A stretch of DNA of 39,699 nucleotides from a virus (IMGVR_UViG_3300042471_000698); one strand, 5' to 3'. Shown: positions 14,720 to 38,460, counted from the first letter of the stretch. Numbers and translations: made by a program. The notes: generated from the sequence alone by a model not told the origin.

Positions 14720-15023
14720 CCACGAATGTCTCCTCGGCGGCATCCCAGTGCCGCAGTTGCTATTTGAGCGCCACGCGCTTCGGAGCGGCCACCCTGCGCT
14801 CATCGCGCAGTGCAGATATGTGGTGCAACAGGTATGGCTTGCAGGCCAGCGCGGTGACGCGCCGATGCCCAGCCATGCAGAACAGCTCGCTGCAGCACGG
14901 CGCGACCTCGCGCACTGGCAAGCCCTTGCAGACAACCCTTACTGGATCGATGACGCCCCGCATTTTATCGAAACCGCGCACGAACGAGTAGCTCAACTGG
15001 AAGTGAACAATGACCAAACATGA
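14712..15023 (+). CDS. Hypothetical early protein
   Basis: Track ORF, 103 aa. Overlaps both neighbours by a few nt, consistent with coupling. Confidence 0.6.
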   Translation: MADHECLLGGIPVPQLLFERHALRSGHPALIAQCRYVVQQVWLAGQRGDAPMPSHAEQLAAARRDLAHWQALADNPYWIDDAPHFIETAHERVAQLEVNNDQT

Positions 15024-15627
15024 CACTCTGACCGACGCCCTCGCCGCAGCGCAGGGCGCTATGCCGACCGTGCCAAAAGACCGGATAGCTAAGATCGGCC
15101 CAGGCCGCGAGTACCGCTACGCCGATTTGGCCACGGTACTCGCAGCCGTGCGGCCAGTCCTAAGCGCGCACGGTCTGGCGCTGACGCAGCGCACCACCAT
15201 CAGCGACGGCGCGCTCGTGCTCGTCACTGAGATCAGACACGGGTCCGGCGAGGTGATCGACAGCCATTACCCCGTGGCCCCGCTTGGCGGGCGTCATCAA
15301 GAGATGGGCGGCGCTCTTACATACGCACGCCGGTATGCTCTGTGCAGCCTGCTCGGCATCGCAGCCGACGAAGACGACGACGGCGCAACTGCGGCAGAAA
15401 CGCCGCAAGTCAAAATACAACCGGCAAAACCGGCAAAACCGGCGCCGATCAACCTCAAAGAGCGCGGGCAAAAAGCCATTGAGGCGCTTGACGCCGCAAC
15501 GCCCGACAAGCTCCCTGTGCTGCTGCAACGCGCAGAAGCGCTGTGGCACGAAATGATTGACGACGGCATGGCCAGCAGCGCGGCGTTGCTGAAGCAGGCC
15601 ATGCAAGACGCTGGGGCGCGCGCGTGA
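15010..15627 (+). CDS. erf: ERF-family single-strand annealing recombinase
   Basis: REYRYADLATVLAAVRPVLSAHGLALTQ and ALTYARRYALCSLLGIAADEDDDG match the ERF superfamily signature, as in P22 Erf. Confidence 0.85.
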   Translation: MTKHDTLTDALAAAQGAMPTVPKDRIAKIGPGREYRYADLATVLAAVRPVLSAHGLALTQRTTISDGALVLVTEIRHGSGEVIDSHYPVAPLGGRHQEMGGALTYARRYALCSLLGIAADEDDDGATAAETPQVKIQPAKPAKPAPINLKERGQKAIEALDAATPDKLPVLLQRAEALWHEMIDDGMASSAALLKQAMQDAGARA

Positions 15628-20569: not shown

Positions 20570-20763
20570 CCCCCATCGCAATCAACCGCGACAGCGGCCT
20601 CGTGCTGTGCGAAGACGGCAGCATCCTTGAGGTCGCCGTCTGGTTTGGCCCAGGCGGTCGCCGTCTGCCTGACGGCGAGGGCGCGCTGGCGTGTGTGATT
20701 GAGACTGATGCGGGCTGGGTGGTGGTGGATCTTCGGTGCTTTGATCCGGTGAGCGTGCATTGA
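20566..20763 (+). CDS. Hypothetical small protein, 65 aa
   Basis: ATGA overlap at 20566 and TGATG overlap at 20763. Product MTPIAINRDSGLVLCEDGSILEVAVWFGPGG... Confidence 0.55.
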   Translation: MTPIAINRDSGLVLCEDGSILEVAVWFGPGGRRLPDGEGALACVIETDAGWVVVDLRCFDPVSVH

Positions 20764-21449
20764 TGCGAGTGGAGACGATAGGCGACGCCACGCTGTATTG
20801 CGGCGATTGCCGGGAGATATTGCCGACGCTTCCGAAGGTGGACGCTGTGGTGACGGACCCGCCTTATGGGATTGCACATACAAGCAATCGCGGAGCATCA
20901 TGGCAAAAAACGCAGATTGCCAACGATCACGACACATCTTGCCGTGATTTCGTGGCCAACTGGTGCGCCGACATGCCGGCGGTGTTTTTCGGCACATGGA
21001 AAATGCCACCAACACAAACAGCACGCGCTTGCGTCGTTTGGGATAAGGGGCCAGCGTCTGGGATGGGCGATTTATCACTTCCGTGGAAGCCATCATTCGA
21101 GCTTGCATATATCTGCGGAAATGGATGGCGCGGAGCACGTGGCGAAGGCGTTTTGCGCGGCCCCGTAGTTGTGAGTTGGGAAAGCGCGGGGCGAGTTCAT
21201 CCGCATCAAAAGCCGGAATGGCTTGCGGCACATTTTATTGAGCGCGCGCCTGGCTTGACCATCCTCGACCCCTTCATGGGCTCTGGCACGACGGGCGTTG
21301 CCTGCATCAAGCTAGGCCGTCGGTTCATCGGGATTGAGATGGAGCCGAAGTATTTCGACATCGCCTGCCGCCGCATTGAGGAGGCGTGGAAACAGCCGCG
21401 CTTGTTTGAAGAGCCAAAGCGCAAGCCTACGCAGTTGGATATGCTTTAA
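20763..21449 (+). CDS. Beta-class N6-adenine/N4-cytosine DNA methyltransferase (N6_N4_Mtase family)
   Basis: DPPY (VVTDPPYG) precedes FMGSGTTGVAC, the order typical of beta-class enzymes such as CcrM. HQKP motif present. ATG at 20763. Confidence 0.85.
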   Translation: MRVETIGDATLYCGDCREILPTLPKVDAVVTDPPYGIAHTSNRGASWQKTQIANDHDTSCRDFVANWCADMPAVFFGTWKMPPTQTARACVVWDKGPASGMGDLSLPWKPSFELAYICGNGWRGARGEGVLRGPVVVSWESAGRVHPHQKPEWLAAHFIERAPGLTILDPFMGSGTTGVACIKLGRRFIGIEMEPKYFDIACRRIEEAWKQPRLFEEPKRKPTQLDML

Positions 21450-23163: not shown

Positions 23164-23168
23164 CCCCA

Positions 23169-23198
23169 AGCCCCGCCCTAACCGGCGGGGCTTTTTTG
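23169..23198 (+). terminator. Rho-independent terminator at the convergence of the rightward and leftward blocks
   Basis: AGCCCCGCC-ctaacc-GGCGGGGCT followed by TTTTTT. Lies between the stop at 23163 (+) and the stop at 23203 (-). Confidence 0.85.
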
Positions 23199-23202
23199 TT
23201 GC

Positions 23203-26115
23203 CTAGTCCACCCGCTCGCGCTCGCCCTGCGCTGCGGCCATGCCCAGGCCGGCGGCAGGGGCGGCGATGCCAAGCATGGGGATGCCCTCGCGCTTGATAC
23301 GCGCGCGCATCTCGGGCGTGAGGTCGAGGATGTAGGCGCTATAGCCGACTGTCCCGTCTGCTTCGTTTCGTGTGGCCATTTCTTCTGCAGTCGCTTCCGC
23401 TTCATCGCGCTGTTGGGACAATTGTCGAATTGATAGCCAATCCGGCCCTTCAAGATTCGCTTCAAGAAACGCTTTTTGTCCTCTAGCAACTGCATCAATG
23501 GCTTCTTGCACCTTGGCTTCTTCGCTCGCCTTCCATTGCTCTATTGCTTGCTGGCGCTGCCGCTCCCAGGCAGCAAGCGTGGCATCAAAACTATTGCGCC
23601 GTTGCGCCATATTAAAATCGTTTTCAGCGTTCTGGATAGCCCGCTGAAACGCTGTTTCAATTGCGTTTGTCTGTTGTCGAACAATTGGATCTGTGCGCCA
23701 GTTCTCGCCAGCGGCATTTCTGATTGCGGCAATGCGCGCGCGCTTTTCTTCCAGCAGTGGCGCTTTCGCCGCGTCAAATGCTTCTCGCGCGCGCACCAGC
23801 GCCTGACGCTGTTCGTCTGTAATCGTTGTCGGCCTTGGCGGCGCTAACCTTTCGTCGAAGGTCGCCGTTTTTAATTGCTCCTGCGCGGCCATCATTTGGC
23901 GGCGCAATTCGTTTTGTGTGTTCTGTGCCGCCCGCATTTTCACACGGTGTTCAGCAAGCTCTCGCTCTAAATCATTAAGGCGCGTTTGCTTTTCGGCAGG
24001 GAACATCTGCTCAAACAGTTGCTCCTTCCTGTCTTCATCGACCACTAGCCTTTTCGGAGACGAAATTATGTCCCCGACGCGCACACGCCCGCCCAGCGCC
24101 TTTGCAACCCTGTCCAGCGCCTCGCGCACGAAAGTATCGTAATACTGATTTGCTTGGTCGTTGCCTTGGATGTCCGCGCTTGTCTTGCCTGTCGGAAACG
24201 AAATGCTGTCGGCATTCTGATTTGCCGCTTTTATTGTCAGAGCGCGCACGCCTGCATTGGTCCATTGTTTCGTGTTTTCTGTGAGAGGGGGCGTTCCGTC
24301 TTGAAGATTAATTCGGCCCAAACGCAATCCCTGCGCCAGGTCGCTTTGCAGCTGACGAACAAACAGTGAGGAACCGCCCTTGTCATCAGGTCTTTTCGCC
24401 CACAGACTGTGCATCAATTCGCCTTTTTGCTGCGTATGGGGACCGACTTTTTCAGCGCCAGCACTCCCGGGCGGCAACAGAAATGAACTCTCCCCTCTTG
24501 TGATATTTGGATCTTCGTCGATGTCATATCGGCTTCCGACGCGGCCCATCTGCCGCTCGCGCAGTTCAAACCTGTTCGACCTGATATAGTCTTCGACCTC
24601 TTGCCGCGTCACGGTACGCCGCCCCTCAAAAGCGTCGCGCAGACCCAGCAGGTCTATTTCCGCCTTGATGTCGCCCTTAAAGCCCTCAAGCCCTGCGCCC
24701 TTCTGGATCAGCGCCACGGCCTCGCTGGGCGGCATGGGCCGATCCGGCAGGCGTTTCGCAGCCTCTAAAGCGCTCAACCGGAAGCCCAACGGGTCTAGCT
24801 CAGGCGGACGGATTGGCGGGGCAGACGCTTGCCCCGGCCCTGCCCCCATCGCGCTGACGAACGACCCCGGCCGATACAGATCGCTGAGTGCGTCCATCAT
24901 TGACCCGACGACAGATCGGGGCGCGTTTGGGTCCGGTTGGTCTGGAGTAAAAAAGGGTCTGCGCGCTGTCGGCATTGGCGGCTCCATAGGCTGCGGCGTC
25001 TCCGCTCTCACCGGCTCCATCGGCGGCGGCGGCGTCAGATCCGGCGCCCCCCGCGTGCTCCCCGGCTCATACAGATTGCCCAGCCCCAGCTTATCAAGAT
25101 ACGCCCTTGCCGCCTCACTCGTGCCGGGCGGGTTCTGGCGCTCGGCAGGCGCTGGGCGCAGGCGCTCCAGATCAGCGCGCGCTGCGGCCAGGTCGGCTTC
25201 AATCGCGCCACGGCCCTGCGTGAGGCGCGCCGGAAAGGCCTCTTTGCGCCAGCTTTCGCCAGGCCCGCCACGCGTGCGGAGTTGACGCGTCTGGCCAAGC
25301 TGCATGCCGCTGCGTGTCATATCGTCCAGCTCGGCCTCGAGCGCGCGCACTTGGTCCAGCGCCTCGTCGTAGGTGGCGGGCGCGGGGCGCGGAGCGCGCT
25401 CGGGCGCAGGCGGCTCGGTGTAGTCAAAGACGCTCGGGCGGGCGGGGCGCAGCGCCGACCCTGCCGGCGCGGCCTCCGGTTCGGCAACCTGCGCCAGCGT
25501 GCGCCCTGCCTGCGTCGCGCCGATAAACGGAATAGCGCCGCCCGCGACAGACGCAGCAATCTGGCCGACCGGCCCAGCGCCCGCAGCCTCCGCGCCCATC
25601 CGCGCAGCCTCGCCCGTCGTTGCGCCGGCAAGCTGACGCCCCGGCATGGCCGCAAGCTCCGTCAGCGTCCCGCGAGACACTGCGCCAGTGGCAAGAGGCA
25701 CAGCCGCCCGCGTAGCGCCAGCGACGCCACCGCCAGCGGCCAGCGCGCGGCTGAGATTGCCAACCGTCTCCTCGACCGCTCCACGCGGCTCTGGCACGCC
25801 AAGCGCGGTCAGCCCCTGCCCGACAACCTCACGCAAAGGCTGGAAGCTTTCCATCTGCCCAGTCGCAGCAGCCGCGCCTGCGGCCAGCGGGTTGGTGACG
25901 ATGCCCGCGACATCCGCCGCGCCCTCTGCCAGATACCGGCCCGTAAGCGCCACCTGCCGCCCCACTTGCCGCAAATACAACCCGCCCAGTGCGTTGCCGA
26001 CTTGGGACAGCGCCTCGCGCGCCTGCTCGGCTGGCGTCGGCGGGCGGTAGACCTGTTGTAGACTGTAGCCGGTGGGGCTCGACGGGTCTGGCACCATGCG
26101 GGTTTCGTAAGGCAT
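23203..26115 (-). CDS. Large internal virion/ejection-type protein, 970 aa, compositionally chimeric
   Basis: Last gene of the leftward block. The Ala/Gly-rich N-terminal ~200 aa are paralogous to the N-terminus of 26631..28889. The C-terminal half is coiled-coil-rich and encoded by visibly lower-GC DNA. Confidence 0.8.
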   Translation of the reverse strand: MPYETRMVPDPSSPTGYSLQQVYRPPTPAEQAREALSQVGNALGGLYLRQVGRQVALTGRYLAEGAADVAGIVTNPLAAGAAAATGQMESFQPLREVVGQGLTALGVPEPRGAVEETVGNLSRALAAGGGVAGATRAAVPLATGAVSRGTLTELAAMPGRQLAGATTGEAARMGAEAAGAGPVGQIAASVAGGAIPFIGATQAGRTLAQVAEPEAAPAGSALRPARPSVFDYTEPPAPERAPRPAPATYDEALDQVRALEAELDDMTRSGMQLGQTRQLRTRGGPGESWRKEAFPARLTQGRGAIEADLAAARADLERLRPAPAERQNPPGTSEAARAYLDKLGLGNLYEPGSTRGAPDLTPPPPMEPVRAETPQPMEPPMPTARRPFFTPDQPDPNAPRSVVGSMMDALSDLYRPGSFVSAMGAGPGQASAPPIRPPELDPLGFRLSALEAAKRLPDRPMPPSEAVALIQKGAGLEGFKGDIKAEIDLLGLRDAFEGRRTVTRQEVEDYIRSNRFELRERQMGRVGSRYDIDEDPNITRGESSFLLPPGSAGAEKVGPHTQQKGELMHSLWAKRPDDKGGSSLFVRQLQSDLAQGLRLGRINLQDGTPPLTENTKQWTNAGVRALTIKAANQNADSISFPTGKTSADIQGNDQANQYYDTFVREALDRVAKALGGRVRVGDIISSPKRLVVDEDRKEQLFEQMFPAEKQTRLNDLERELAEHRVKMRAAQNTQNELRRQMMAAQEQLKTATFDERLAPPRPTTITDEQRQALVRAREAFDAAKAPLLEEKRARIAAIRNAAGENWRTDPIVRQQTNAIETAFQRAIQNAENDFNMAQRRNSFDATLAAWERQRQQAIEQWKASEEAKVQEAIDAVARGQKAFLEANLEGPDWLSIRQLSQQRDEAEATAEEMATRNEADGTVGYSAYILDLTPEMRARIKREGIPMLGIAAPAAGLGMAAAQGERERVD

Positions 26116-26124
26116 AGCGAGCCC

Positions 26125-26634
26125 CTAGCGGATGATCACCGACACTTCGTCGCCTGCAGCGAGCCCGGTCACGAACGTAATGCTCGTCGATGAGGTCTCG
26201 GCGTAGTCAGCCGTACGCTCCATCAGCAAGCCGTTGACGTAGACCTGCAGGTCATTCGTCCCCGGATCATAGGACGCGCCAAGCGTGAACAGCGTCTGCC
26301 CTGCGGTCGCCGTCAGCGTCTGGCGGTAGCCGAAGGCGGGCGCGGAGAAGTTCAAGTCGCTGTAGACCAGCGCGCCGGTCTTGTCCTTAATCAGGATGCT
26401 GTAGGGCGACTGGCTGGCGATGATGTTGCTCGGTGAGCCGTTGCGACTTGGGTAGCCCGCCAACGTGCGGATCGGCTGAGGAGCCGTCGTCGTCAGGCTG
26501 TTGTCCCAATACACCGTGATCGGGTTGGTCTCAGGGTTCTGGCCCGGGAGGCCGATATAGATGTAGCCCGCCTCAAGCGGCTCTCCCTTGCGGTCGTAGA
26601 AGAGCAAGAAGGGCTGGGTGACGATGACGCTCAT
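26125..26634 (-). CDS. Fibre/spike N-terminal-domain-like protein, 169 aa
   Basis: FLLFYDRKGEPLEAGYIYIGLPGQNPETNPITVYWDNSLTTTAPQPIRTLAGYPSRNGSP resembles a recurrent N-terminal module of phage fibre/depolymerase proteins (from memory). Confidence 0.5.
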   Translation of the reverse strand: MSVIVTQPFLLFYDRKGEPLEAGYIYIGLPGQNPETNPITVYWDNSLTTTAPQPIRTLAGYPSRNGSPSNIIASQSPYSILIKDKTGALVYSDLNFSAPAFGYRQTLTATAGQTLFTLGASYDPGTNDLQVYVNGLLMERTADYAETSSTSITFVTGLAAGDEVSVIIR

Positions 26635-28889
26635 TTCTGCCTCATCTGGGCTGGGGTCACGGGACGAGGCTCACGATAGCCTGACTGTGCGTAAGACGAT
26701 GCGATAGCGCCGCGAAGCCAGCGGCTCGGATCGGCAATGCCGGCCTCCTTCGCCCACGCTCGGAAAGCCTGGCTTGCCTCAACGCGGCGGACGGCTTTCT
26801 CATCCACGCGCGTCTTCGTGCTCATGGTGATGACCAGCTCTTGGAACTCTGGCGACGAGAACAGATCACCAGCCGATTGCAGTGCATCCTTGCGCGAAGC
26901 GCTGACCATCTGATCCAAAGCCATTGCCGTTGCGGCACCTGCTATCGGCCCCCCGGCTGTGCCAGCAACGACAGATGCCGCACCCTGCGCCGCGCGCCGT
27001 CCCACAGTGCTGTTCAGCGCGCGCGCCACCAAGCCCTCGCCGGTCAGTGCCTGCACAAGCGCCTGGTTGGCTTTGCCCGTCGTCAACACCTGCGCGCGCG
27101 CATCGGTCACGCGGCGACTGACCTCATAGAGATCGCGCAGAAAGCTTTCACCTTCTGGCCCCATCGCTTGGGCGACAAGCCGATAAGTCTCGCTGTTGCG
27201 CCGGATACCCTGATATAGCGTTGCGTACTGAGCAAATCCAAAAGCGCCTTCCGGTCCTCCGCGACTAAGCGCTGCGATTGTGCTGCCGATCGCCTGCCGG
27301 CGCAGATCCTGGGGGATGGCGCGCAGTGCGCGATTAAGTCCGCTGGTGTCTCCACGACCGCCAGAGGATAGCGCCGTACGAAGTTGCGACGCGATAGAGC
27401 CCTCTTGATCGGACCCGAATACTTTCGTGATGCGCCTCTCAAGCGCTTTTTGCATTGCTGTCGTTTGGTTCGCAAGGCGAAGATCGGCGCGTAACTGCGC
27501 GCCCCCGACGCGCTCAACGGTCGCGAGTTGATCTTCAGCAAGTGCTGAATACAAACGCTTAAGCGTCGCTTGGTCAACGTCAGCGTAAGGCCCTTCAAAC
27601 CGCTCCAGAGCGCGCCCGATTGCTTGCTTCTCGCGCATCAGGGCGAAATAACTCACCGGCTGGCGTTGGTTAGTGACCATATTGAGCAGCCGTTGCTCTT
27701 GCGCCGTCAAACCCCTCTGCCCGCGCAGGTTTGCAATGACTGTATTAAGGGCGCGCACCGTGTTGTCAGGCTCCACAATCGTGTTCTGCGGCACCCGTGC
27801 GTCGATTGTGTCGTAAAGTTGTTTGGCCTGCCGTTGCAGGGTGTCGCGCTGGTCAGTCAGCGCTGTCCGAATGCGTGACGATACCGCCGACAGATCGGGT
27901 GAACTGTCGATCTGCGTCAGTGCATCATCAGCCGCACGCGCCGCCTCCCGCACTTGATCGCGCCATGTCGCACTGGCGACAGAGCCAGCCACGCTGCGCG
28001 TCAGGCCCACGGCTTCCCGAAGCTGCGTATGATCCGCCCAGACGTCGGGCGGCAGATCAATGCCCAGGCGCTGCGCTGCGGCAAGCGCCTCCGGGTCTAC
28101 CTTCGCCAGCTTCGCCAGCTCCTCAACTGCTCTCTGGCTTCCCAACCCGCCGGTTGCTGCCGTGCGGACCAGCTGACCCAGCTCAGCCGCTGTGATCTCG
28201 CGCTGCGGCGGCGGTGGAGCCTGGCGCGGCATTGGCACGCGCAACGTTGCGCCCGTCTCCGTCTGGAGTTCGCGCGTCACCGTCTGCGGCGCAGTCGGCG
28301 CACCGCGCACCAGTGCAGGCGCCACGCCGCCCAGAACGCCTGCCGCAAACTCCTCAACGGGCGTCCCGCCCATCTCGCGCGTAGCCTGCGCCGCGCCGGT
28401 TGCGCCAGCAGCGCCTGCGAGTTGCAGGCCGGGCTCCTCCGCAAGGAAGCGGCCAGCCTGGCCAACAGCACCAGGCGCTTGCGACAACATCCTGCCAGCA
28501 GCGACGCCCCCGCCCGCGCCAGCCACGGCGCGCGATGCTTCGCCCACAATCTGCTCAACCGGTCCCTGCGGTTCGGGGACGCCGACTGCGGTCAGCGCTT
28601 GGCCAACGCGCTCGCGCAGCGGGACGAACTCCTCTTGCCGCCCTGCCGCTGTCAGCGCCATGAGGCCCAACGGATCTGCGACAATGCCAGGAACCGCAGC
28701 AGCGCCCTCTGCAAGGTATCGTGCCGTAAGGCCAAGTTGTCGCGGCACTTCCTCCATGATCGTCTGGCCAATCGGCTCACGCGGTTGCTGCGCCAGCATC
28801 TGCTCCACGAGCGCAATCGCCTCGGCCTCAGACGTGGCCTCCACCTCAACCTCAGTGCCGTCGTCCAGAGTGATGATATAGCGCTCCAT
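26631..28889 (-). CDS. Large internal virion/ejection-type protein, 752 aa
   Basis: The ATG at 28889 overlaps the upstream stop (TGATG); the track uses GTG 28892. N-terminal RYLAEGAAAVPGIVADPL...VPLRERVGQALTAVGVPEPQGPVEQIVGEASRAVAGAGGGVA is shared with the 970-aa protein. Confidence 0.8.
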   Translation of the reverse strand: MERYIITLDDGTEVEVEATSEAEAIALVEQMLAQQPREPIGQTIMEEVPRQLGLTARYLAEGAAAVPGIVADPLGLMALTAAGRQEEFVPLRERVGQALTAVGVPEPQGPVEQIVGEASRAVAGAGGGVAAGRMLSQAPGAVGQAGRFLAEEPGLQLAGAAGATGAAQATREMGGTPVEEFAAGVLGGVAPALVRGAPTAPQTVTRELQTETGATLRVPMPRQAPPPPQREITAAELGQLVRTAATGGLGSQRAVEELAKLAKVDPEALAAAQRLGIDLPPDVWADHTQLREAVGLTRSVAGSVASATWRDQVREAARAADDALTQIDSSPDLSAVSSRIRTALTDQRDTLQRQAKQLYDTIDARVPQNTIVEPDNTVRALNTVIANLRGQRGLTAQEQRLLNMVTNQRQPVSYFALMREKQAIGRALERFEGPYADVDQATLKRLYSALAEDQLATVERVGGAQLRADLRLANQTTAMQKALERRITKVFGSDQEGSIASQLRTALSSGGRGDTSGLNRALRAIPQDLRRQAIGSTIAALSRGGPEGAFGFAQYATLYQGIRRNSETYRLVAQAMGPEGESFLRDLYEVSRRVTDARAQVLTTGKANQALVQALTGEGLVARALNSTVGRRAAQGAASVVAGTAGGPIAGAATAMALDQMVSASRKDALQSAGDLFSSPEFQELVITMSTKTRVDEKAVRRVEASQAFRAWAKEAGIADPSRWLRGAIASSYAQSGYREPRPVTPAQMRQK

Positions 28890-30220
28890 CACTGACCCGC
28901 CTTCCGCACGTCAACAATGCGCCCGGTTGACTGCGCGCCTGATGGTGCTGGGCGGCGATTTACTATGCCGCCAAACCTTTGCGCTGCGGGCGGTGGTGGT
29001 GGCGGTGGAGCAGGTGGCGCGGGTGGCGGCAACGGCGCTGATGCGCCCAGAAACACATTCTCTGGATTAAGGCCCCGTCGTTCAGCAAACCGCTTGTAGT
29101 CGGCCATGTTCTTGCGTTGACGGGCCTCAATCGCATTGAAGGCCGCTGTTGCTTGCGCCATCAATTCCGAACGCGTTTTTTCGTTCAATAAGTTTCCGCT
29201 TCTCAGACTGCTCACATATGTATCAAGCTTGTTTAGGATGCCGCCAATGTTTTGCGTCTGCGCGAATTCGGTTTCGCGAACACCAGTGGCGGGATCAAGA
29301 ATGCGGCGGAACATTGTAATCAACGCAAGATCGCCTGCGCCGGTTCCAAGCCGTCTGCTAACTAGCATTTGCTCGTAGGCATTGCGCGCGTCTGCGAAAA
29401 CGGTTGATGCCTTGTTCACTTCCGTCCGCAAACTGTCTTCCGCTTTCATTTGGTCTTCCGGCGGCAGGAACCCTCCACCAGCATTCCTTGCCGCCTCAAC
29501 CTGCGCTGCAATCTGACCAATGCGCGCGCCAACCTCTTGCGTCTCGCGTTTCACTTTTGCCGTCTGCGCTTGCGTCAGGCCAAGGTCAGCGGCCATGTTC
29601 TCGACTTCCAGCGCTGCCTTTTCCCGGCCCGCTGGCGCATTCATAAACGCCTCACGCGCTTTCACGATCTGCTCAAACCGCTCGGGATCAAGCACGGCAA
29701 GCTGCATCGCAACGTTCTGCTTAAAAGCCGTCGGGTCGCTTTTGAGCATTTGCAACATGCCGTCTACGACCTTAGCGCCATCCATATCGCCGCTGTTTTC
29801 GTAAGCGGCTTTCTGTTGTTCCAAGCTTGCTTGCGCGCGCGGCATGTTGTTGGTTTCGATCTCGGCAAAAATCCGCACCAAGTCGTTGAAGCCTGCTTCT
29901 TTCTGCTGCGCGGATTGTTGAGAAATGATCTGCTGGATCGGCTGCGCCAAGGCAGGGTTTCCGGAGATAACCTTCAGGACGTCCGACGCTTTCCAGTCGC
30001 CAGCATCGATCTTGCCGTACAGCGCCGCCATATCGTTCTGCATTCGCTGCGCCGCCGCCATCTCCTGCTCGACCTTCATCCGCTGCGCTTCGGCCTGCGC
30101 CTGCTGGGCCTGGATCAGCGCGCCCTGTTGTTGCTGCTGGCGCAGGCCCTGCCCCAGCTGCAACCCTTGCACGGCGGCTTCCAAGGGGTTGACCACGTCC
30201 ATCTGATAGTTAATCGCCAT
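28889..30220 (-). CDS. Coiled-coil virion protein with C-terminal poly-Pro tract, 443 aa
   Basis: Track ORF. Gln/Ala-rich coiled coil. PLPPPAPPAPPPPPPPAAQ near the C-terminus. Position matches the ejection proteins of P22-like phages. Confidence 0.7.
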   Translation of the reverse strand: MAINYQMDVVNPLEAAVQGLQLGQGLRQQQQQGALIQAQQAQAEAQRMKVEQEMAAAQRMQNDMAALYGKIDAGDWKASDVLKVISGNPALAQPIQQIISQQSAQQKEAGFNDLVRIFAEIETNNMPRAQASLEQQKAAYENSGDMDGAKVVDGMLQMLKSDPTAFKQNVAMQLAVLDPERFEQIVKAREAFMNAPAGREKAALEVENMAADLGLTQAQTAKVKRETQEVGARIGQIAAQVEAARNAGGGFLPPEDQMKAEDSLRTEVNKASTVFADARNAYEQMLVSRRLGTGAGDLALITMFRRILDPATGVRETEFAQTQNIGGILNKLDTYVSSLRSGNLLNEKTRSELMAQATAAFNAIEARQRKNMADYKRFAERRGLNPENVFLGASAPLPPPAPPAPPPPPPPAAQRFGGIVNRRPAPSGAQSTGRIVDVRKAGQ

Positions 30221-30223
30221 GGC

Positions 30224-31057
30224 TCACACCCTCACTGGCAAACGCGGAATGCCAATATCTGCGGGCAGGCCAGGCGGCGTGATGCCTGGACCCATCATCG
30301 GCCCCATGTAATTCATCGCGCTTGGAGCAGCCCCCCTGCCGCCCGTCCCGCCAAACGCCCCCAGCCCCGCAGCCAGGCCCACGCTCCCGGCGATATTGCC
30401 CCACATATTCGCGGACGCCTGCCCCCGCGCGAGCGCGAGCTGTGCGGCGATGTTGCCGCGGCCCATCGCCTGGTTGGCGAGCGCCTGGCCCTGCTGAGAG
30501 TAGATGTTGCTGATGTTGGTTCCGAATGCCTGCCCCTGCGCGGCTTGGCCGGCGGCTGAGGCCTGGCCCACTTGTGTCAGGCCGCCAAGGCGGGTGTATT
30601 GCTGATTGATCAAGCTAGACAGCACTTCTGGCCGAAACTTCGCCAACGCCTGCTGCACATTGCCGCCGCGCAGACCGCCGGTCGCTGACGCCTGCTGCAG
30701 GATCGCCTCTTCGCCCTGCCGGGTCAGCGCAGCGAATTCCGGACCCATTTCAATCTCGCGGATCGCGTTGGCCTGCGCCTCCGGGCCTGAGACGCCAAGC
30801 AACGCCATCTGCCGCGAGAGCGCTCCCCCGCCCGCTTCGACGTAGGGCTTGAACAGGGCCTGGATCGCGTCGAACTGTCGGCGCTGCTCCTCGAGCGCCA
30901 TGCGCGAGCCCTCAAGCTGCGCCTGCGTCGCTGCGTCTGTCGCCTGCGTCTGAGCGGCTGCGGCGCTCTTAGCGGCGCTCTTCTGCGCGCGCGCCGACAT
31001 TGCGCCACCGACGACGCTGGATCCAATGATGGCCGCAGCGATAAGAGGAAAAGGCAT
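30224..31057 (-). CDS. Gly/Ala/Gln-rich internal virion protein, 277 aa
   Basis: Track ORF. N-terminal hydrophobic segment FPLIAAAIIGSSVVGGAM and a Gly-rich C-terminus. Confidence 0.7.
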   Translation of the reverse strand: MPFPLIAAAIIGSSVVGGAMSARAQKSAAKSAAAAQTQATDAATQAQLEGSRMALEEQRRQFDAIQALFKPYVEAGGGALSRQMALLGVSGPEAQANAIREIEMGPEFAALTRQGEEAILQQASATGGLRGGNVQQALAKFRPEVLSSLINQQYTRLGGLTQVGQASAAGQAAQGQAFGTNISNIYSQQGQALANQAMGRGNIAAQLALARGQASANMWGNIAGSVGLAAGLGAFGGTGGRGAAPSAMNYMGPMMGPGITPPGLPADIGIPRLPVRV

Positions 31058-31785: not shown

Positions 31786-32640
31786 TCAGCCCCCTATGTT
31801 GTTGGTCACGGACACGATGACAGACGGCGTAGCGGGCGCGGGCGCAGCGGTGGCAAAACTTCTAATCTCCACCCCGGTGTCGTTCACGCTCCACTTGTAC
31901 TCAATGTAGTCGCCAGCCTTAAGGCTGAAGATGTAATTCCACGCCGCCACCGTCTCGCTGTTATTGCCGTCAAGACGCATGCGGGTCGCGCTGTTGGCCA
32001 CGTCCACGCCGTTCTTGGCATACCAAAGGTAGAGCAGCCCCTTGCCGCCGGTCGTTTTGTCGACCTGGATGCTGTGCTGGTAATTGAACAGCCCGCCTTG
32101 ATCCACTGTGATGCGCGTCGCGGGGCTTCCGGCGACGAAAACGCCGAAGCTCAAGTCGGTGTTTGACAAGCTGACGGTGTACGCGGTGTTGATCACCGCG
32201 GCCTGCTGCGTGTTCAGGTCATAAAATGTTCCGTACACTTCACGCTTCGGCGGCGTCGCGGGCGGCGCAAGCGCGAGGAGGTCAACCGTCTGGCGCAGCC
32301 CGTCGATCTCGCGCGTGGGTGAGGTCGCGAGCAGGTCCAGCGCCTGACGCGCGCTTACCAGCGCATCAAGCGCCTGTTGCGCCATCGCAGTCGCCGTGTC
32401 GGCCTGCATGACCTGCTGCGCCAGCGTGGCGAGGATCGCAGCCGTGACCTCCGCGCTGTTGGCGTTAGCGCCGATCGCGAGGCTGTTGGCCTCAATGGCG
32501 CTGTTAATGGTTGCAATGTCGCTTGGCGTCAGTTCGCCAGCGACCTTGAAAAGCCGCTCAATGGCGCGGATAGCCTCAGGATCGTTACCCACGAAGGCCG
32601 CGATCTGCGCGCGCGTGATGGGCTTTGGGTCTGCTACCAC
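31786..32640 (-). CDS. Tail needle-like protein (gp26 position): N-terminal plug, coiled coil, C-terminal beta knob
   Basis: Directly follows the gp10-like gene. Ala/Leu/Gln heptad-like middle (AAILATLAQQVMQADTATAMAQQALDALVSARQALDLL). Beta-rich C-terminal ~130 aa. GTG start at 32640. Confidence 0.55.
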   Translation of the reverse strand: MVADPKPITRAQIAAFVGNDPEAIRAIERLFKVAGELTPSDIATINSAIEANSLAIGANANSAEVTAAILATLAQQVMQADTATAMAQQALDALVSARQALDLLATSPTREIDGLRQTVDLLALAPPATPPKREVYGTFYDLNTQQAAVINTAYTVSLSNTDLSFGVFVAGSPATRITVDQGGLFNYQHSIQVDKTTGGKGLLYLWYAKNGVDVANSATRMRLDGNNSETVAAWNYIFSLKAGDYIEYKWSVNDTGVEIRSFATAAPAPATPSVIVSVTNNIGG

Positions 32641-34034
32641 GCCAGACCCTCCAACTGCGCCTCAAGGCGCGCCACGCTGAGGTAAGCGTCAGACGTACCG
32701 GCAAAGCGCTGCACACGCCAATTTCGGAACGCGCCCTGCTGCAGCCATTGCAGCCGCTTGGCGCGGTCCCCGATCTTACCCGCGGCGATCCACTTGGGCT
32801 GCGACCACGTCACGCCGTCGAGGCTGTATTGCGTGGAAATGCGCGGATCCTCGCCCAGTGCGACGCGGCCAGGCAGGGCGACAAGCTCAAGCGTATGCAC
32901 GATAGCGCCGCGGCTGTCGTTGTAGATGATGCTGGTCTGGAACTGCCAGCCGACCGTCTGGCCCCACTGCGTGGACACGGTGTCCGTGAGATAGCCAAGC
33001 GCCGGGCTGGTCGTGTCGGCTGTGTTCCAACGGTTGTACGCCCACACAAGCGACTGCGAGCGCCACGGCGTCGAGCCGTCAAGGCTTGTCGAGAGGCAGA
33101 ACCACACTGGTTCGCTGAGCACCTGGCTCGCCGCGCCGTCATAGACCAGCGTCTTGCGCGGCAGGTGCATCACCAAGTGCTGATAGTTGCGATCCACGCG
33201 CGTCTCGAAGAACGCCGTCGCCAGCTCGGCTTCTGTGTACTCAGCGAGGATGAGGTCCACTTCGCGCGTGCTGATTTTCGCCGTGTTGCCATTGCCGCCA
33301 AGCCAGACGCCCGGCGCTTCGTTCTGACCGCTTCCAAGAAAGGCGATCTGCTCAAGGAACACCGTCACGCAGTGCGTGCCGATCACGCCGCGCTGCAACT
33401 GAGCCCCAGGCACGCGCTCAAAGGGAAAGCCCGTCTGGCCGGTGTTTTGGAACACTTCGACGGTGTGCCTGTTAAGCGCGTAGACCTCATTGCGAAGCTT
33501 GACGATCGCCTTGACCGGATCGGGATCGACTTCGCTGCTGCCATACTTGAAAGGATCGACCGCGAACGGATTATTTAGCTCCGTGATGACGAGAAACTCG
33601 CCATCCGTCGTGAGAAAGTAGCCATCTACCCAGATCACATCGAGCACGGTTCCAAGGTCGGGATCGGTGTTTTGGGTTAGCGTGCTGCCGTCGTAGAAAT
33701 ACAGGCCGCCGCCGCCAGCGATGGCCAAGTAGTCGAAGCTGTAGACCATTGTCACCCGGTCAGTGCCGGGAATGTCGCCCAGCACGGTCACCGCGCCGGA
33801 AGCGTCGATCCTGCACAGCTTGGTGCCAAGCACGCGATAGAGCACGCCGTCCCACTCAATCCCGCCACGACTAACGCCTGGCCCTGTACCCTGCGCGACG
33901 ATGCCGTCAGCAGGACGCAGGTAGCTGGTATTGATCCCCGTCGGCGCGACAATTGGGATCAGATTGCGCGGGTATTCGGACCGAAAATCGGCCCGCGCGT
34001 CTGTCCAGATGCCGCTGAGGATCGGGATTTGCAT
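32634..34034 (-). CDS. P22 gp10-like tail hub protein
   Basis: 466 aa (P22 gp10 is 472). TEAELATAFFETRVDRNYQHLVMHLPRKTLVYDGAAS parallels P22 TAEEMATGVMETLRFDSHELLIIHLPRHVLVYDASSS. Confidence 0.85.
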   Translation of the reverse strand: MQIPILSGIWTDARADFRSEYPRNLIPIVAPTGINTSYLRPADGIVAQGTGPGVSRGGIEWDGVLYRVLGTKLCRIDASGAVTVLGDIPGTDRVTMVYSFDYLAIAGGGGLYFYDGSTLTQNTDPDLGTVLDVIWVDGYFLTTDGEFLVITELNNPFAVDPFKYGSSEVDPDPVKAIVKLRNEVYALNRHTVEVFQNTGQTGFPFERVPGAQLQRGVIGTHCVTVFLEQIAFLGSGQNEAPGVWLGGNGNTAKISTREVDLILAEYTEAELATAFFETRVDRNYQHLVMHLPRKTLVYDGAASQVLSEPVWFCLSTSLDGSTPWRSQSLVWAYNRWNTADTTSPALGYLTDTVSTQWGQTVGWQFQTSIIYNDSRGAIVHTLELVALPGRVALGEDPRISTQYSLDGVTWSQPKWIAAGKIGDRAKRLQWLQQGAFRNWRVQRFAGTSDAYLSVARLEAQLEGLAW

Positions 34035-34098: not shown

Positions 34099-35742
34099 TT
34101 ACGCCGTGATAGCCCCGAACGTTTTCCACGTTCCAGGGTTTCCGGCTGTCGTGCACACGGATCCAATATGCCCGCCTGCTGTTGGATTTGGGTTTAGAAC
34201 CACATCGCCTACAATCGCGCCGCCCACGGCCGCCGCCCAGATTGTCGGGTCATAATGCGCGACCCAACGCGTCTGCTTTCCGCCCGAAAGCCCATCGTTA
34301 GCTCGAAACTTTAAGGTTTCGGTTTCTGGCAAAATGATAGTTCGATAGTCTCCGCCGTTAACGGTCACAGGACCAAACAACAACGACCCGGCAAAATCGT
34401 TTGAGCCTGCCGTTACAAACGTGTTTTTGCTTGTGAATTGGCCTCGTGTGAACGATGCTCCGGTTCCTACCTGCTCGAAATAACAATTGTTGAATGTCGC
34501 GCTGTTGACGCCACCCGAGCAAAACGGCAACTGATATCCGGTGGCCGCAAAAAACACGCAATCCGAATAATTCACATTTTGACTGTTAGACAGTTCAAAT
34601 CTGTTTGCCGTTCCGCCATAGATCACGCCAGACGGCGAATAGGCCGGATCAAGAATGAATTTACACCCATAATATTTTGCCGCTCGCTCTGGATCTGTTG
34701 ACCCGCCAGCATTAACAGACGCGCCAACAAACGAACAGCTTTCAAAGCGAAAGCGTGGGTTTACCGTCCAAAACGACCACTGCGTCGTGCCGATGAATTG
34801 ACAGCCAACAAAAGTGCAATCGCTGGATCCTGCAACATCTGAAACAACGCCAACACCAGTGTTATTAAAACACCGCACATTAAAAAACATACCGCCAGTT
34901 ATAATCGATCCGGCTTCGGGCTCGATATCAATGCCCGCGCCAGGCGGCGACGACACAACCCCATTCTTCCCTGTATCTGAAAAGTCTGAATCAATAATCG
35001 TAAGGCTATTACCGCCGACCCACGACAAACCTTGTCTGCCGTTATACGTTGCGCGGCAGTTGATCATTGTATGCGGGTATTTTGGCTGCGTTGACGATGT
35101 GACCACGCGCGAGATTTCAAAGCCGTCAAGCCCATGATGGTGCGAATAGACGTTTGAAATCGACACCATGTTGTTCTGATATGCGCGAATGCCTGTAGCT
35201 CTAATCTGAGTGCCCAAGTCGCCCCAAAAACCGCCGATGATCATTGCGTTGATGTTGCCATCTATCTCTAAATCGCTAATTGCAACGCTTGCGTTGTTAA
35301 CAACATTGATCACATCAGGCAGAAATGCCCGCAAATCCTGATTATATTCAGGCAGCGTTGTAACCACTGCAGCGCCTGTCACCGGATTAAATGACCCATA
35401 TCGCAATCCGGCGGCGACTTTTAGAATGGCGCCATTTCCCTGAATAATTACGGGCCGCGTGCAGTTCTCGACTGTTATGACCTTGGGAACTACCGACCAT
35501 CCCGTGCCAGGAACGTCACCGTAAGAAAACCCTTTGCCCGTCGCTCCTGCAAAATTTTGTTTTCCGACGATATATGTCCCTGGCGGAATGACGAGAGTGC
35601 CGCCGCTAGCGGTGTTAATAGCCGCGCTCGCTGCGATAAAAGCGTCCGTGTCGTTTGTAACGCCATCGCCTTTAGCGCCAAAATCTTTAACGCTCACAAT
35701 GGCGTTTAATTTCTGCACATTGTCGAGCGCTTTGCTGCTCAT
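34099..35742 (-). CDS. Tailspike / polysaccharide depolymerase, right-handed beta-helix (pectate-lyase superfamily)
   Basis: VKDFGAKGDGVTNDTDAFIAASAAINTASGGTLVIPPGTYIV is the classic Pectate_lyase_3 N-terminal motif. Repetitive beta-helix-like body. Start trimmed to the ATG at 35742 (ATGA overlap). Encoded by low-GC DNA. Confidence 0.8.
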   Translation of the reverse strand: MSSKALDNVQKLNAIVSVKDFGAKGDGVTNDTDAFIAASAAINTASGGTLVIPPGTYIVGKQNFAGATGKGFSYGDVPGTGWSVVPKVITVENCTRPVIIQGNGAILKVAAGLRYGSFNPVTGAAVVTTLPEYNQDLRAFLPDVINVVNNASVAISDLEIDGNINAMIIGGFWGDLGTQIRATGIRAYQNNMVSISNVYSHHHGLDGFEISRVVTSSTQPKYPHTMINCRATYNGRQGLSWVGGNSLTIIDSDFSDTGKNGVVSSPPGAGIDIEPEAGSIITGGMFFNVRCFNNTGVGVVSDVAGSSDCTFVGCQFIGTTQWSFWTVNPRFRFESCSFVGASVNAGGSTDPERAAKYYGCKFILDPAYSPSGVIYGGTANRFELSNSQNVNYSDCVFFAATGYQLPFCSGGVNSATFNNCYFEQVGTGASFTRGQFTSKNTFVTAGSNDFAGSLLFGPVTVNGGDYRTIILPETETLKFRANDGLSGGKQTRWVAHYDPTIWAAAVGGAIVGDVVLNPNPTAGGHIGSVCTTAGNPGTWKTFGAITA

Positions 35743-35975
35743 TGGCCACGCCCCTTCGCTATAGCCGCGTCCCAAGAAGACAAGTCATAGCCGTCCCACC
35801 ACGGGTTTGCGCGCGCCTGCTCAAGATGCAGCACGTTGCGCGCAATTGTCGCCAGCTCGTCCGGGTCCGTAGTCCCAGCCAGCCGGTTGATCAAGGCCAC
35901 GCTGTGGCCAGCGCGGGCATAGTGACCGGCGATTTCCTCTGCGGTGGGTGTGTCATCGAGCATTGTCACCTCCAT
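35739..35975 (-). CDS. Hypothetical small protein, 78 aa
   Basis: Track ORF. TAATG and ATGA overlaps with the flanking fibre and spike genes. Confidence 0.6.
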   Translation of the reverse strand: MEVTMLDDTPTAEEIAGHYARAGHSVALINRLAGTTDPDELATIARNVLHLEQARANPWWDGYDLSSWDAAIAKGRGQ

Positions 35976-37131: not shown

Positions 37132-37433
37132 CAGATGCCCTCGCCTGCAATGATGTGCAGCGATGTACTGTCGCCCGCGCCGCAGACGGCAGCCAGGACG
37201 CTGTCGTCCAGGCTCTTGCTAATGCTGACCTGGCTGAGAGGCAGGACCGGATAGTCTGCGGTCGTTGCCGTGACGGTTCCGCGCCCGATACGGACGTAAC
37301 AGACGTCTGCGCCAAGGTTGGTCAGGCACACTGCGAAGTTGCCCTGACCGAAGGTCACTTGCGCGCTGGTGTCCGTGACGCTCAGCGTCTGCCCGCTGCC
37401 ATATCTGGGGTTGAAAGTTCGATCAAGTTCCAT
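37131..37433 (-). CDS. Hypothetical beta-rich protein, 100 aa
   Basis: Track ORF. Overlaps the upstream gene by 11 nt. Confidence 0.6.
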   Translation of the reverse strand: MELDRTFNPRYGSGQTLSVTDTSAQVTFGQGNFAVCLTNLGADVCYVRIGRGTVTATTADYPVLPLSQVSISKSLDDSVLAAVCGAGDSTSLHIIAGEGI

Positions 37434-38460
37434 ATCTGGCCTCGTTTCCTTCTGTCATAAGCCAAATTACCTCCGACAACAATGCGCCAACGATTGCCGC
37501 ATTGGCCGGCGTCGGCGGGGCCGGCGTTGACGGGTCCGGGTCGTCAGGCGCGCGCATGTCCACCAAGCGAGGCCGGGAGAAGCGCCCGCCCTTGCGCGCC
37601 TGCTGCTTGGCGCGATCGCTCGCCGCCGCGCGCTTGTCCTGCTCGCGCTTGACTTCCGGTGACATTGTGAGCGCCAAAGGCAAGCCGAAAAACACCACGC
37701 TCTTGATGAACAAGGCCCTGAGCAAGTCGAGCGTCACGCCCCAGAAGTCGCGGTCGCCTGGCAGTGCCGACGCTATCACCGTATCAAGCGGGCGCGGATC
37801 CACCGCCAGCGGCGCGGCCACCATCGCCGCATCGCGCTGGCCGGCGATCTGCGTCACCAGCTGCACGCGCTGCGCGGCGCGCTGCGTGACATACTCTGAG
37901 ATCGCGCTCACCAGGCGGCTGCGTCCAGTCGGGCTGTCTGCCGGCGCATCCGCCAGAGCCTGGCGCATCGTCGCCACCATTGCCGCCGTCTCAGCGTCGA
38001 AAGCCGCCAGCGGGTCCACAGCCGCCACGGTGACGACGGCTTGCGCTTGCGCGGATAGCGCGCGCGCCACCTGCTGTTCGTGCAGGAGGTAATTCCAGCC
38101 GCTGGCTAAGGAGACTGAGAACGCCGCGACCGCAAGCACGTTACCCCAGATCACGAGATCACGCCTGCCCGCCTCGCGCGCGTAGCGCGTCAGCATGCCG
38201 ATCAACAGCGCCACCGCAACGACGCCGATTGCGACGTGCGCGGCGAATTGTCTGTCTTGGAGCCAGAGTTCCCACCCCTTGCGCTCCAAGGGGTAAAAGA
38301 CAAACAGCACGAAGATGGGGATGCCGATTGCCGCCGCGGTCTTAATCGACACCCGCGCGCCGTGCAGGCGCAGGCGCTCCACTACGTCGCTCAGCCAGCG
38401 GCCGAAACTGTAGTACAGCGCCCTGCGCAGCGGGCCACGGGACCAAAAGTCATCCGTCAT
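37423..38460 (-). CDS. Multi-pass membrane protein, 345 aa
   Basis: Track ORF. TM segments AAAIGIPIFVLFVFY, VAIGVVAVALLIGML, VLAVAAFSVSLASGW and FIKSVVFFGLPLAL. Basic, Pro-rich C-terminal tail. Confidence 0.65.
   Translation of the reverse strand: MTDDFWSRGPLRRALYYSFGRWLSDVVERLRLHGARVSIKTAAAIGIPIFVLFVFYPLERKGWELWLQDRQFAAHVAIGVVAVALLIGMLTRYAREAGRRDLVIWGNVLAVAAFSVSLASGWNYLLHEQQVARALSAQAQAVVTVAAVDPLAAFDAETAAMVATMRQALADAPADSPTGRSRLVSAISEYVTQRAAQRVQLVTQIAGQRDAAMVAAPLAVDPRPLDTVIASALPGDRDFWGVTLDLLRALFIKSVVFFGLPLALTMSPEVKREQDKRAAASDRAKQQARKGGRFSRPRLVDMRAPDDPDPSTPAPPTPANAAIVGALLSEVIWLMTEGNEARYGT

Follow-up and report, generated by a model that had tools for sequence, protein, structure and literature searches.

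The 970-aa gene at the end of the late operon

We analyzed a 39,699-nt stretch of DNA from the virus IMGVR_UViG_3300042471_000698 (the window, in what follows), and in particular the gene at 23203..26115 (- strand), which encodes a 970-aa modular protein of apparently polyvalent type and is the final gene of the late operon. The 39.7-kb window carries the gene set of a P22-like podovirus: terminase, P22-type portal, scaffold, major head protein, and Ad3 adaptor, together with beta-helix tailspikes and a gp10-like Phage_stabilise protein. On the - strand, the late operon runs from the gp10-like gene (32634-34034) through a gp7-like ejection protein (30224..31057; PF25688, phrog_598), a 443-aa protein in the gp20 position (28889..30220), a 753-aa gp16-position ejection (“DNA transfer”) protein (26631..28892; 752 aa if counted from the ATG one codon further in), and a 169-aa protein that serves as a marker of the conserved locus (26125..26634) to the 970-aa gene, with a hairpin after it. 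This is the gene order of gp7, gp20, and gp16 in P22 (the E-proteins; gp11-gp13 in Sf6), except that P22 has no gene of the 970-aa kind past gene 16. The 970-aa open reading frame (ORF) begins 9 nt past the stop codon of the 169-aa gene, and an AGGGG Shine-Dalgarno sequence stands 7 nt upstream of its ATG. The G+C-rich hairpin (10 bp, 8 of them GC; 23168..23193, no strand assigned) lies between the convergent late (-) and early (+) operons; because its T-run is present on the + strand only, the early operon has in it a canonical terminator and the late operon a terminator that is U-less at best.

The 970-aa gene can be divided as follows, all parts being on the - strand. A leader (aa 1-40, MPYETRMVPDPSSPTGYSLQQVY..., 25996..26115), which the relatives P0003, P0005, and P0156 keep and which has no counterpart in the 753-aa protein, precedes an N-terminal module (N-module; aa 41-200, 25516..25995). 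The homolog of this module is the domain with which gp16-position ejection proteins begin. Next come a conserved linker (aa 201-362, RPSVFDY...LERLRPAPAERQNPPGTSEAARAYL..., 25030..25515) common to P0002, P0003, P0004, P0005, and P0156; the junction motif PPPMEPVRAE (aa 363-372, 25000..25029), encoded by a sequence of ~30 nt that is repeated on the relative’s locus L004 and also occurs on L006; and a Pro-rich spacer (aa 373-436, 24808..24999). The cargo begins with a helical N-subdomain of what we call the QSD-motif family (aa 437-515, 24571..24807), in which G+C at third codon positions (GC3) is still high, and continues into an alpha/beta core (aa 516-686, 24058..24570) with family-conserved residues and a predicted, distantly GNAT-like fold. 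A helical Ala/Glu/Arg/Gln-rich insertion (aa 687-925, 23341..24057) occupies a variable loop of the cargo domain, and the last part of the gene (23203..23340) encodes a cargo C-terminal element (YILDLTPEMRARIKREGIPM, aa 927-946); a hydrophobic Ala/Gly stretch and then charged residues (AAPAAGLGMAAAQGERERVD) lead from there to the stop codon. The C-terminal tail is common to P0001, P0002, and P0004. More widely, proteins that end just past a QSD domain or a sister cargo (P0007, P0017, P0004, and the window at 23203-23270) finish in a short hydrophobic Ala/Gly tail plus charged residues (AAPAAGLGMAAAQGERERVD and AGAGVGMLGALRAALSEEEQSDG are examples), which could be a membrane anchor or sorting signal.

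Base composition changes abruptly along the gene. G+C is 70.5% at 24601-26115 and 55.8% at 23203-24600 (whole window: 62.8%), and among sliding 1.4-kb windows (n = 383) the 5′ half falls within the top 3 in G+C and the 3′ half among the lowest 22. A first-pass annotation, made from the sequence alone, had described just such a GC-rich 5′ part and AT-richer 3′ part, and the profile is indeed not flat; its hand counts for the 60-nt lines at 23401, 23641, and 24181 were exact (0.50, 0.483, and 0.467). The drop within the gene is ~0.17-0.19 at each of the three codon positions, and because all positions fall alike, about two-thirds of it reflects amino-acid composition (Ala/Gly/Pro-rich against ordinary or helical), the N-half of the protein having 18-24% Ala and 22-28% Pro+Gly. 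The remaining third is synonymous. By a two-segment likelihood, GC3 shifts at codon 526 (nt ~24538) from 0.755 to 0.566, with none of 500 permutations reaching the observed likelihood ratio, and GC3 has its minimum (0.40-0.60) in the helical insertion at aa 687-925. The break had been placed where the cargo begins; it sits ~90 codons inside the cargo domain, not at the domain start. Other late genes are also patchy: the tailspike has a GC3 of 0.517, and the gp20- and gp16-position genes contain stretches of 0.56-0.65.

Opposite the GC-rich half there are long antisense ORFs of 374 and 206 aa (24665-26061, +). We rejected these (e.g., 24937-26061, +) as genes, since such frames are an expected by-product of high G+C without stop codons. 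We also rejected an assembly chimera or gene-fusion artifact, because the ORF is intact and the same architecture is found on four independent contigs.

The N-module and the gp16-position ejection protein

The N-termini of the 970-aa protein and its 753-aa neighbor are paralogous, as the first-pass annotation had claimed. Residues 43-198 of the former and 41-194 of the latter (the module copy at 28311..28772, - strand) are 48% identical (BLASTP with composition-based statistics: E = 2e-23), and the relationship is visible in the DNA (BLASTN, 25719-25952 against 28499-28734: 68% over 247 nt, E = 8e-14). The DNA similarity first noticed at 25900-25990 and 28680-28760 lies mostly within these intervals, overshooting slightly at its upper end, and both peptides quoted in support were found in the proteins. 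Where ~200 aa had been thought to be shared, the homology extends over ~155 aa, and the first 40 aa differ between the two proteins. The N-module is Ala/Gly-rich, with the motifs RQ(V/L)(A/G)LTGRYLAEG, GVPEP, and E..VG..SRA, and its hydropathy peaks are moderate (KD19 1.0-1.34).

The neighbor had itself been taken for a second adaptor-plus-cargo protein, a view that we do not retain. It matches phrog_770 (aa 128-663, gp16 “DNA transfer protein”) and phrog_6704 (aa 234-717) among the PHROGs, and tblastn with it returned gp16-type genes in 39 phages, all matches starting at aa 232-265 (the region homologous to the gp16-type proteins of P22-like phages being aa 232-744). On these matches we assign it as the gp16-position ejection protein, the class to which the module appears to be native. 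Its first ~230 aa are a lineage-specific N-terminal region.

A profile search with the N-module recovered few proteins in a large protein database, as well as 12 IMG/VR contigs, on all of which the module lies at aa ~35-250 of proteins of 460-1045 aa. On the three with recognizable neighbors (L008, L009, and L016; gene positions set by phmmer against the window’s late proteins), the module-bearing protein comes after the gp10, gp7, and gp20-position homologs. In a neighbor-joining tree of modules, the copies from the 970-aa protein and two full-length relatives group together (bootstrap 1.0), the copy in the 753-aa protein branches next to them as sister (0.995), and all of these are nested among gp16-position modules. 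The synonymous divergence (dS) between the two window copies is ~1.1 and saturated, so the paralogy is old rather than recent. The ratio of nonsynonymous to synonymous divergence (dN/dS) of the module is 0.07-0.24 within the polyvalent lineage, indicating purifying selection. From these comparisons we infer that the N-module is native to gp16-position ejection proteins, that a single ancient capture brought it into the forerunner of the 970-aa protein, and that selection keeps it there.

Other searches with the module were negative. Single-sequence scans of IMG/VR and GTDB genomes gave no match, and neither did an alignment-based genome scan, so that no prophage copy or host was found; Pfam has no model for the module. 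PHROG scans of the module-bearing IMG/VR proteins gave no match, and the same was true of a Pfam scan of 10 sampled neighboring ORFs at three IMG/VR loci.

Two further observations concern the gp16-position protein. Its first ~30 aa (MMERYIITLDDGTEVEVEATSEAEAIALVEQ) resemble by eye the start of P22 gp16 (L019 2485-4314), a likeness that extends to several metagenomic gp16-position proteins, and these residues may be a small conserved N-terminal mini-domain. Between window 26631-30220 and L001 5870-9489, identity is 70-91% for the genes on either side, but different proteins have in essence taken over the gp20 and gp16 positions: at the former, 28% identity extends across the first 183 aa, and at the latter BLAST matches nothing save the final 10 residues, PV(T/S)PAQMRQK, whose coding sequence runs into the beginning of the gene that follows. 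A recombination boundary is the probable explanation.

Allelic relatives, cassette exchange, and the cargo domain

A full-length search with the 970-aa protein returned only five relatives, and DNA and protein searches (including tblastn) of 50,697 phage records gave no match. The relatives’ locus is that of the window: theirs is the final late gene, after a 169/170-aa gene (L001, L002, and L210), and the proteins flanking the locus are 68-91% identical. The leader pattern MxxxxxMVPDPSSPTG... and the ~165-aa linker are common to the relatives, and most of them have the N-module. What follows the linker varies. Among the complete proteins, P0156 (343 aa) has nothing past it and is chassis only, P0003 (748 aa) has two ART-like modules, and P0005 (883 aa) has a different N-region and unrelated cargos. 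Among the 5′-truncated ones, P0004 has an ART-PolyVal domain (40.9 bits; Pfam cut-off 31.2), a further module, and the same C-terminal tail; P0002 (L004) has an ART-like cassette and then the same cargo as the window, without the helical insertion; and P0001 has the same cargo, insertion included. The 970-aa protein itself comprises one ejection-protein N-module, the linker, and one cargo domain, against two to three cargo modules in allelic relatives.

The first-pass annotation had read the protein as an adaptor with swappable cargo, following the logic of polyvalent or effector-delivery proteins. The same-locus relatives, which keep leader, N-module, and linker and differ in cargo or have none, agree well with that reading, as do the ART-PolyVal match above the Pfam cut-off in one relative and the recurrence of the cargo in giant polyvalent proteins (below). 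P0005 (L210 414-3065) keeps leader and linker, but its aa 45-260 are a different region in place of the N-module, with weak similarity only to the module’s second half, so the N-module itself may be exchangeable. No model in Pfam, PHROGs, or NCBIfam matches the 970-aa protein, and no similarity to the body of the gp16 family was detectable (PHROGs; tblastn, the same phage records).

Comparison with L004 shows where the exchange occurred. The linker of the window gene is 89% identical to that of P0002, and from codon 363 to ~497 the two genes are 96-100% identical in nucleotides; past ~codon 513 identity falls to 54-76%, and the place of this first breakpoint agrees with that of the GC3 shift (codon 526). 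Between the linker and cargo blocks, L004 carries ~720 extra nt that are absent from the window, and this extra (ART-like) cassette is flanked by a 30-nt direct repeat encoding PPPMEPVRAE (448-477 and 1195-1224). The window has one copy of the junction, at 25000-25029 (exact 17-mer 25013-25029), and L006 has one copy ahead of a second cargo. Searching metagenome and viral collections for the exact junction 17-mer (CCGCCGCCGATGGAGCC) returned 190 loci, none of them related by tblastn, the motif being too GC-simple. Across the 3′ half, identity between the window and L005 alternates (94-99%, 71-86%, ~90%, 60-74%, and 91-97%), and the insertion at aa 687-925 is patchy relative to the close relative on L005 (60-92% of nucleotides). 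Recombination between repeated junction sequences would add or remove cassettes, and homologous recombination inside the cargo domains is a second mode.

Of the earlier proposal that the cargo was recently acquired from a lower-GC source, the source finds support in the coincidence of the low-GC3 part with a recombination breakpoint. The low GC3 is, however, also found in the relatives with the same cargo, so the foreign segment is older than their divergence and “recently” is unsupported.

The cargo domain extends over aa 437-686 plus 926-950. An exhaustive HMMER search with aa 437-690 returned 214 cluster representatives (clusters at 50% identity) at E ≤ 1e-3; among the best 149 of these, 44 are at least 2000 aa long and 23 at least 3000 aa. 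In P0014, LPD23 and a zincin-type metallopeptidase (DUF6782) adjoin the QSD domain, and the BFVD structure matches of the cargo are large uncultured-phage proteins (best E = 4e-8), some of them labeled “large polyvalent protein associated domain”. Solo QSD-domain genes occur as well: on L211 one directly follows a gp10-like gene, and on L212 one has structural genes on one side and a lysozyme on the other. The family has three conserved blocks with variable insertions between them, and a further element at the C-terminal side, Y(I/V)LD(I/L)TPEMR..I...G.P(L/M), follows 3-130 aa past the core in 23 of the 72 relatives compared. Because this element follows at aa 927-946 in the 970-aa protein, the helical region at aa 687-925 (240 aa) is an insertion within the cargo domain and not, as first described, a separate C-terminal coiled coil after a globular region. 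LPD23 was considered as the family’s C-terminal element and rejected, since in P0014 it comes after that element. Twelve residues are conserved in at least 80% of the 72 relatives and all are kept in the 970-aa protein (E542, H560, Q590, S591, D592, Q595, R598, P610, T615, W618, R624, and Y659). Pfam has no model for the cargo domain, whether the isolated cargo or the relatives were searched; NCBIfam gave no match in the full-length 970-aa protein or two cargo-family members; and PDB sequence searches, single-sequence and profile, returned noise only.

AlphaFold2 with family alignments gave confident models, with a pLDDT of 83 and a pTM of 0.80 for aa 437-690, and 91 and 0.86 for aa 496-690. 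For both models, all top Foldseek matches in the PDB are GCN5-related N-acetyltransferases (GNATs: spermidine/spermine acetyltransferase SSAT, RimI, GNA1, and the ICL2 C-terminal domain), with probabilities up to 0.99, and the secondary-structure order of the core fits beta2-beta3-beta4-alpha3-beta5-alpha4. On these models, mapped onto GNAT elements from secondary-structure strings without superposition, QSD would lie at the end of beta4, T615 and W618 would start the alpha3-like helix, and Y659 would fall in the alpha4-like helix. GNATs have their cofactor loop and catalytic Tyr at positions matching QSD/T/W and Y659, and their motif A (Q/R-x-x-G-x-G/A), in the beta4-alpha3 loop, binds the CoA pyrophosphate.

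Several results speak against a GNAT assignment. The Foldseek matches are weak (E from 1e-3 to 1e-1, best 1.2e-3 and 3.2e-3; TM-scores 0.26-0.45); no Pfam Acetyltransf hit was obtained at E ≤ 10 among 17 cargo-family members; hhalign against a RimI-type alignment (checked against PDB) gave a probability of 0.15%; and motif A is missing, beta4 being followed by QSDLAQG here and QSDWGQK in relatives and then by a variable insertion. The alpha1-alpha2 pair of GNATs is not evident, and the variable insertions are large. Given the lack of a Pfam hit, the hhalign probability, and the missing motif, we call the core only distantly GNAT-like and do not file it as GNAT.

The rest of the window provides the genomic context. 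The early region encodes an ERF recombinase (PF04404, 81 bits; 15010-15627, +) and a DNA N6/N4 methyltransferase with a DPPY motif (PF01555, 78 bits; 20760-21449, +). The portals closest to that of the window are from the metagenomic “Caudoviricetes sp. Manatee Spring” (64%) and then from Pseudomonas and Ralstonia P22-like phages. The 169-aa protein is strongly conserved (91% identity to its L001 counterpart and 68% to that of L002) and has weak PHROG matches to tail-fiber and tailspike N-terminal regions. Nothing else in the late region deviates as strongly in composition as the beta-helix tailspike gene at 34099-35775 (-), with G+C of 0.509 and GC3 of 0.517, against ~0.78-0.84 in core genes. 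The gene resembles its L001 counterpart at the two ends only; it looks like an exchanged receptor-binding module. A 345-aa ORF at 37423-38460 (-) has a subthreshold match to Acyl_transf_3 (E = 0.0022, 17.6 bits against a cut-off of 31) and may encode an O-antigen-modifying acyltransferase adjoining the tailspike genes.

A candidate delivery chassis and its alternatives

What the comparisons show is homology, a locus that is conserved, cargo that is swapped, a mosaic left by recombination, and purifying selection on the module. In our view the product of the 970-aa gene is probably a modular effector of the polyvalent type, assembled on a chassis of ejection-protein origin. The chassis would consist of the 40-aa leader, a 160-aa N-module derived from a gp16-position protein like the one two genes upstream, and the ~165-aa linker with its Pro-rich junction (PPPMEPV), behind which cargo cassettes would be exchanged. 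The single cargo of the window phage would be the QSD-motif domain, split by the 240-aa helical insertion and partly imported from a lower-GC lineage.

On this reading, the N-module would enter the procapsid via the same contacts as the gp16-type protein and leave through the gp7/gp20/gp16 channel, and the cargo would reach the cytoplasmic membrane or the cytoplasm before phage gene expression and modify a host target. In P22, the channel segment spanning the cytoplasmic membrane is made of gp16, whose N-terminal region is predicted to touch the gp20 plinth (bioRxiv 10.64898/2026.09.03.749273). The N-terminal parts of P22 gp7 and gp20 are enough for procapsid incorporation, and a 10-aa T4 signal sends fusions to the capsid (PMC8402733).

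A wider proposal, which we advance tentatively and with less than even confidence, is that a clade of environmental P22-like podoviruses turned the N-terminal domain of its inner-membrane ejection protein into a general delivery tag for junction-swapped enzyme cassettes (ARTs, the QSD domain, and others), so that a strain-specific effector is injected through the channel ahead of the genome; the QSD domain would then be a new, widespread family of injected anti-host or anti-defense enzymes.

Known systems share parts of this arrangement. Polyvalent proteins have been proposed to enter the host with the DNA (Iyer, Burroughs, Anand, de Souza, and Aravind 2017; PMC5512222), in a study that connects phage polyvalent proteins with MuF, portal, and N4 vRNAP and whose text does not contain P22, gp16, or ejection. 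Like them, the 970-aa protein has a beads-on-a-string organization, is encoded among late virion genes, has relatives with ART-PolyVal (PF18760), and carries a cargo domain that recurs in proteins of 2000-6600 aa, alongside a zincin-like metallopeptidase and LPD23; for both, the proposed role is to be delivered together with the DNA as infection begins. Unlike them, it has one cargo domain and no peptidase, its delivery part is a domain of the P22-type gp16-position ejection protein, and Pfam has no model for its cargo, nor does the full-length protein match PHROGs or NCBIfam. The N-module holds the position of the N-terminal region of P22 gp16, which is itself Ala/Gly-rich without a strong transmembrane helix, and the neighboring protein matches the gp16 family phrog_770, whereas no resemblance to the C-terminal body of gp16 is detectable in the 970-aa protein.

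By analogy with the T4 IpIII capsid-targeting sequence and Alt, MuF-toxin fusions, and the N4 virion RNA polymerase, a virion-targeting part would carry an enzyme to the capsid and on to the host, and among such capsid-targeted injected proteins an ART is a typical payload; the tag here, however, would be a 160-aa channel-protein domain and not a 10-aa signal, a MuF/portal domain, or a giant polymerase. Polymorphic toxin systems also combine a constant N-terminal delivery part, a pre-toxin-like linker or junction, and C-terminal modules swapped by recombination, but they differ from the phage virion context seen here, in which there is no adjoining immunity gene and the junction motif is another. 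In the sources searched, a P22-type ejection-protein delivery part, a junction repeat for cassette exchange, and the QSD-motif family all appear to be undescribed.

A number of points weigh against the delivery reading. At maximum sensitivity the N-module HMM found no match in P22 gp16, no PHROG family matched the module, and the gp16-position protein of L001 (l750) lacks the module by both BLAST and HMM, as does that of L002 (L2_753) by BLAST. Because the HMM misses P22 gp16, the L001 protein, and the PHROGs, the homology cannot be extended to the classical gp16 N-terminus; and because L001 and L002, the closest phages, have the module only in the polyvalent protein, a simple model of same module, same docking partner fails in places. 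A 171-aa N-terminal amber fragment of P22 gp16 was not detected in particles (PMC8402733). With one cargo domain only, the 970-aa protein is polyvalent mainly by kinship, and its virion packaging, ejection, enzymatic activity, and target are all inferred.

Some of the same features would suit a structural protein. The N-module in common with the gp16-position protein, the Ala/Gly-rich, moderately hydrophobic segments with a hydrophobic C-terminal tail, the long helical region, and the location of the gene within the ejection-gene block would fit a fourth part of the DNA-ejection channel, that is, a diverged gp16-type paralog whose C-terminal part extends or anchors the conduit in the inner membrane. 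We regard this as unlikely, since a chassis-only relative of 343 aa occupies the same locus, other relatives carry ART-type enzyme modules, giant polyvalent proteins that have no relation to the channels of podoviruses are where most of the cargo family is found, and the helical region is an insertion that P0002 and other close relatives lack; cargo exchanged so freely is also hard to square with an essential structural role. Slightly less likely again is a late, non-virion protein (e.g., a membrane-associated one acting in exclusion, lysis timing, or assembly) in which the module reflects a common membrane association or assembly partner. Such a protein would be hard to reconcile with a gene that is codirectional with and tightly coupled to the ejection genes, the terminator coming only after it, with a module otherwise known only in gp16-position proteins, with solo QSD-domain genes standing among virion genes, and with relatives that carry ART-PolyVal, a family defined in proteins predicted to be injected (PMC5512222). 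It is favored by the indirect case for packaging of the 970-aa protein, by the binding of P22 gp16 to membranes without a strong transmembrane helix (bioRxiv 10.64898/2026.09.03.749273), and by the fact that the P22 genes past gene 16 (sieA, mnt, arc, and ant) are not virion genes.

A separate alternative concerns only the compositional break, which might reflect amino-acid content (an Ala/Gly/Pro N-half against a Glu/Lys/Gln helical C-half) and no foreign DNA. The parallel fall of G+C at first and second codon positions, the coding-driven two-thirds of the drop, and the Ala and Pro+Gly content of the N-half all point that way. The sharp GC3 change point, unmatched in 500 permutations, and its coincidence with the abrupt fall in identity to an otherwise near-identical relative (96-100% to 54-76%) largely refute this explanation, and we consider it very improbable.

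Even if the chassis delivers no cargo, the locus clearly illustrates how cassettes can be exchanged within one phage gene where its linker sequences are repeated. To our knowledge, the proteins known to be injected by P22-like phages are only the three or four that form the channel. If the chassis does deliver cargo, it would show by what route accessory effectors are loaded into the very small ejection apparatus of short-tailed phages, and it would provide a 160-aa candidate tag and a natural junction for engineered protein delivery by P22-type particles. It would also point to a large unannotated domain family, with 214 representatives, many of them in giant polyvalent proteins, and the invariant E/H/QSD/R/T/W/Y residue set makes this QSD-motif family directly testable as an enzyme.

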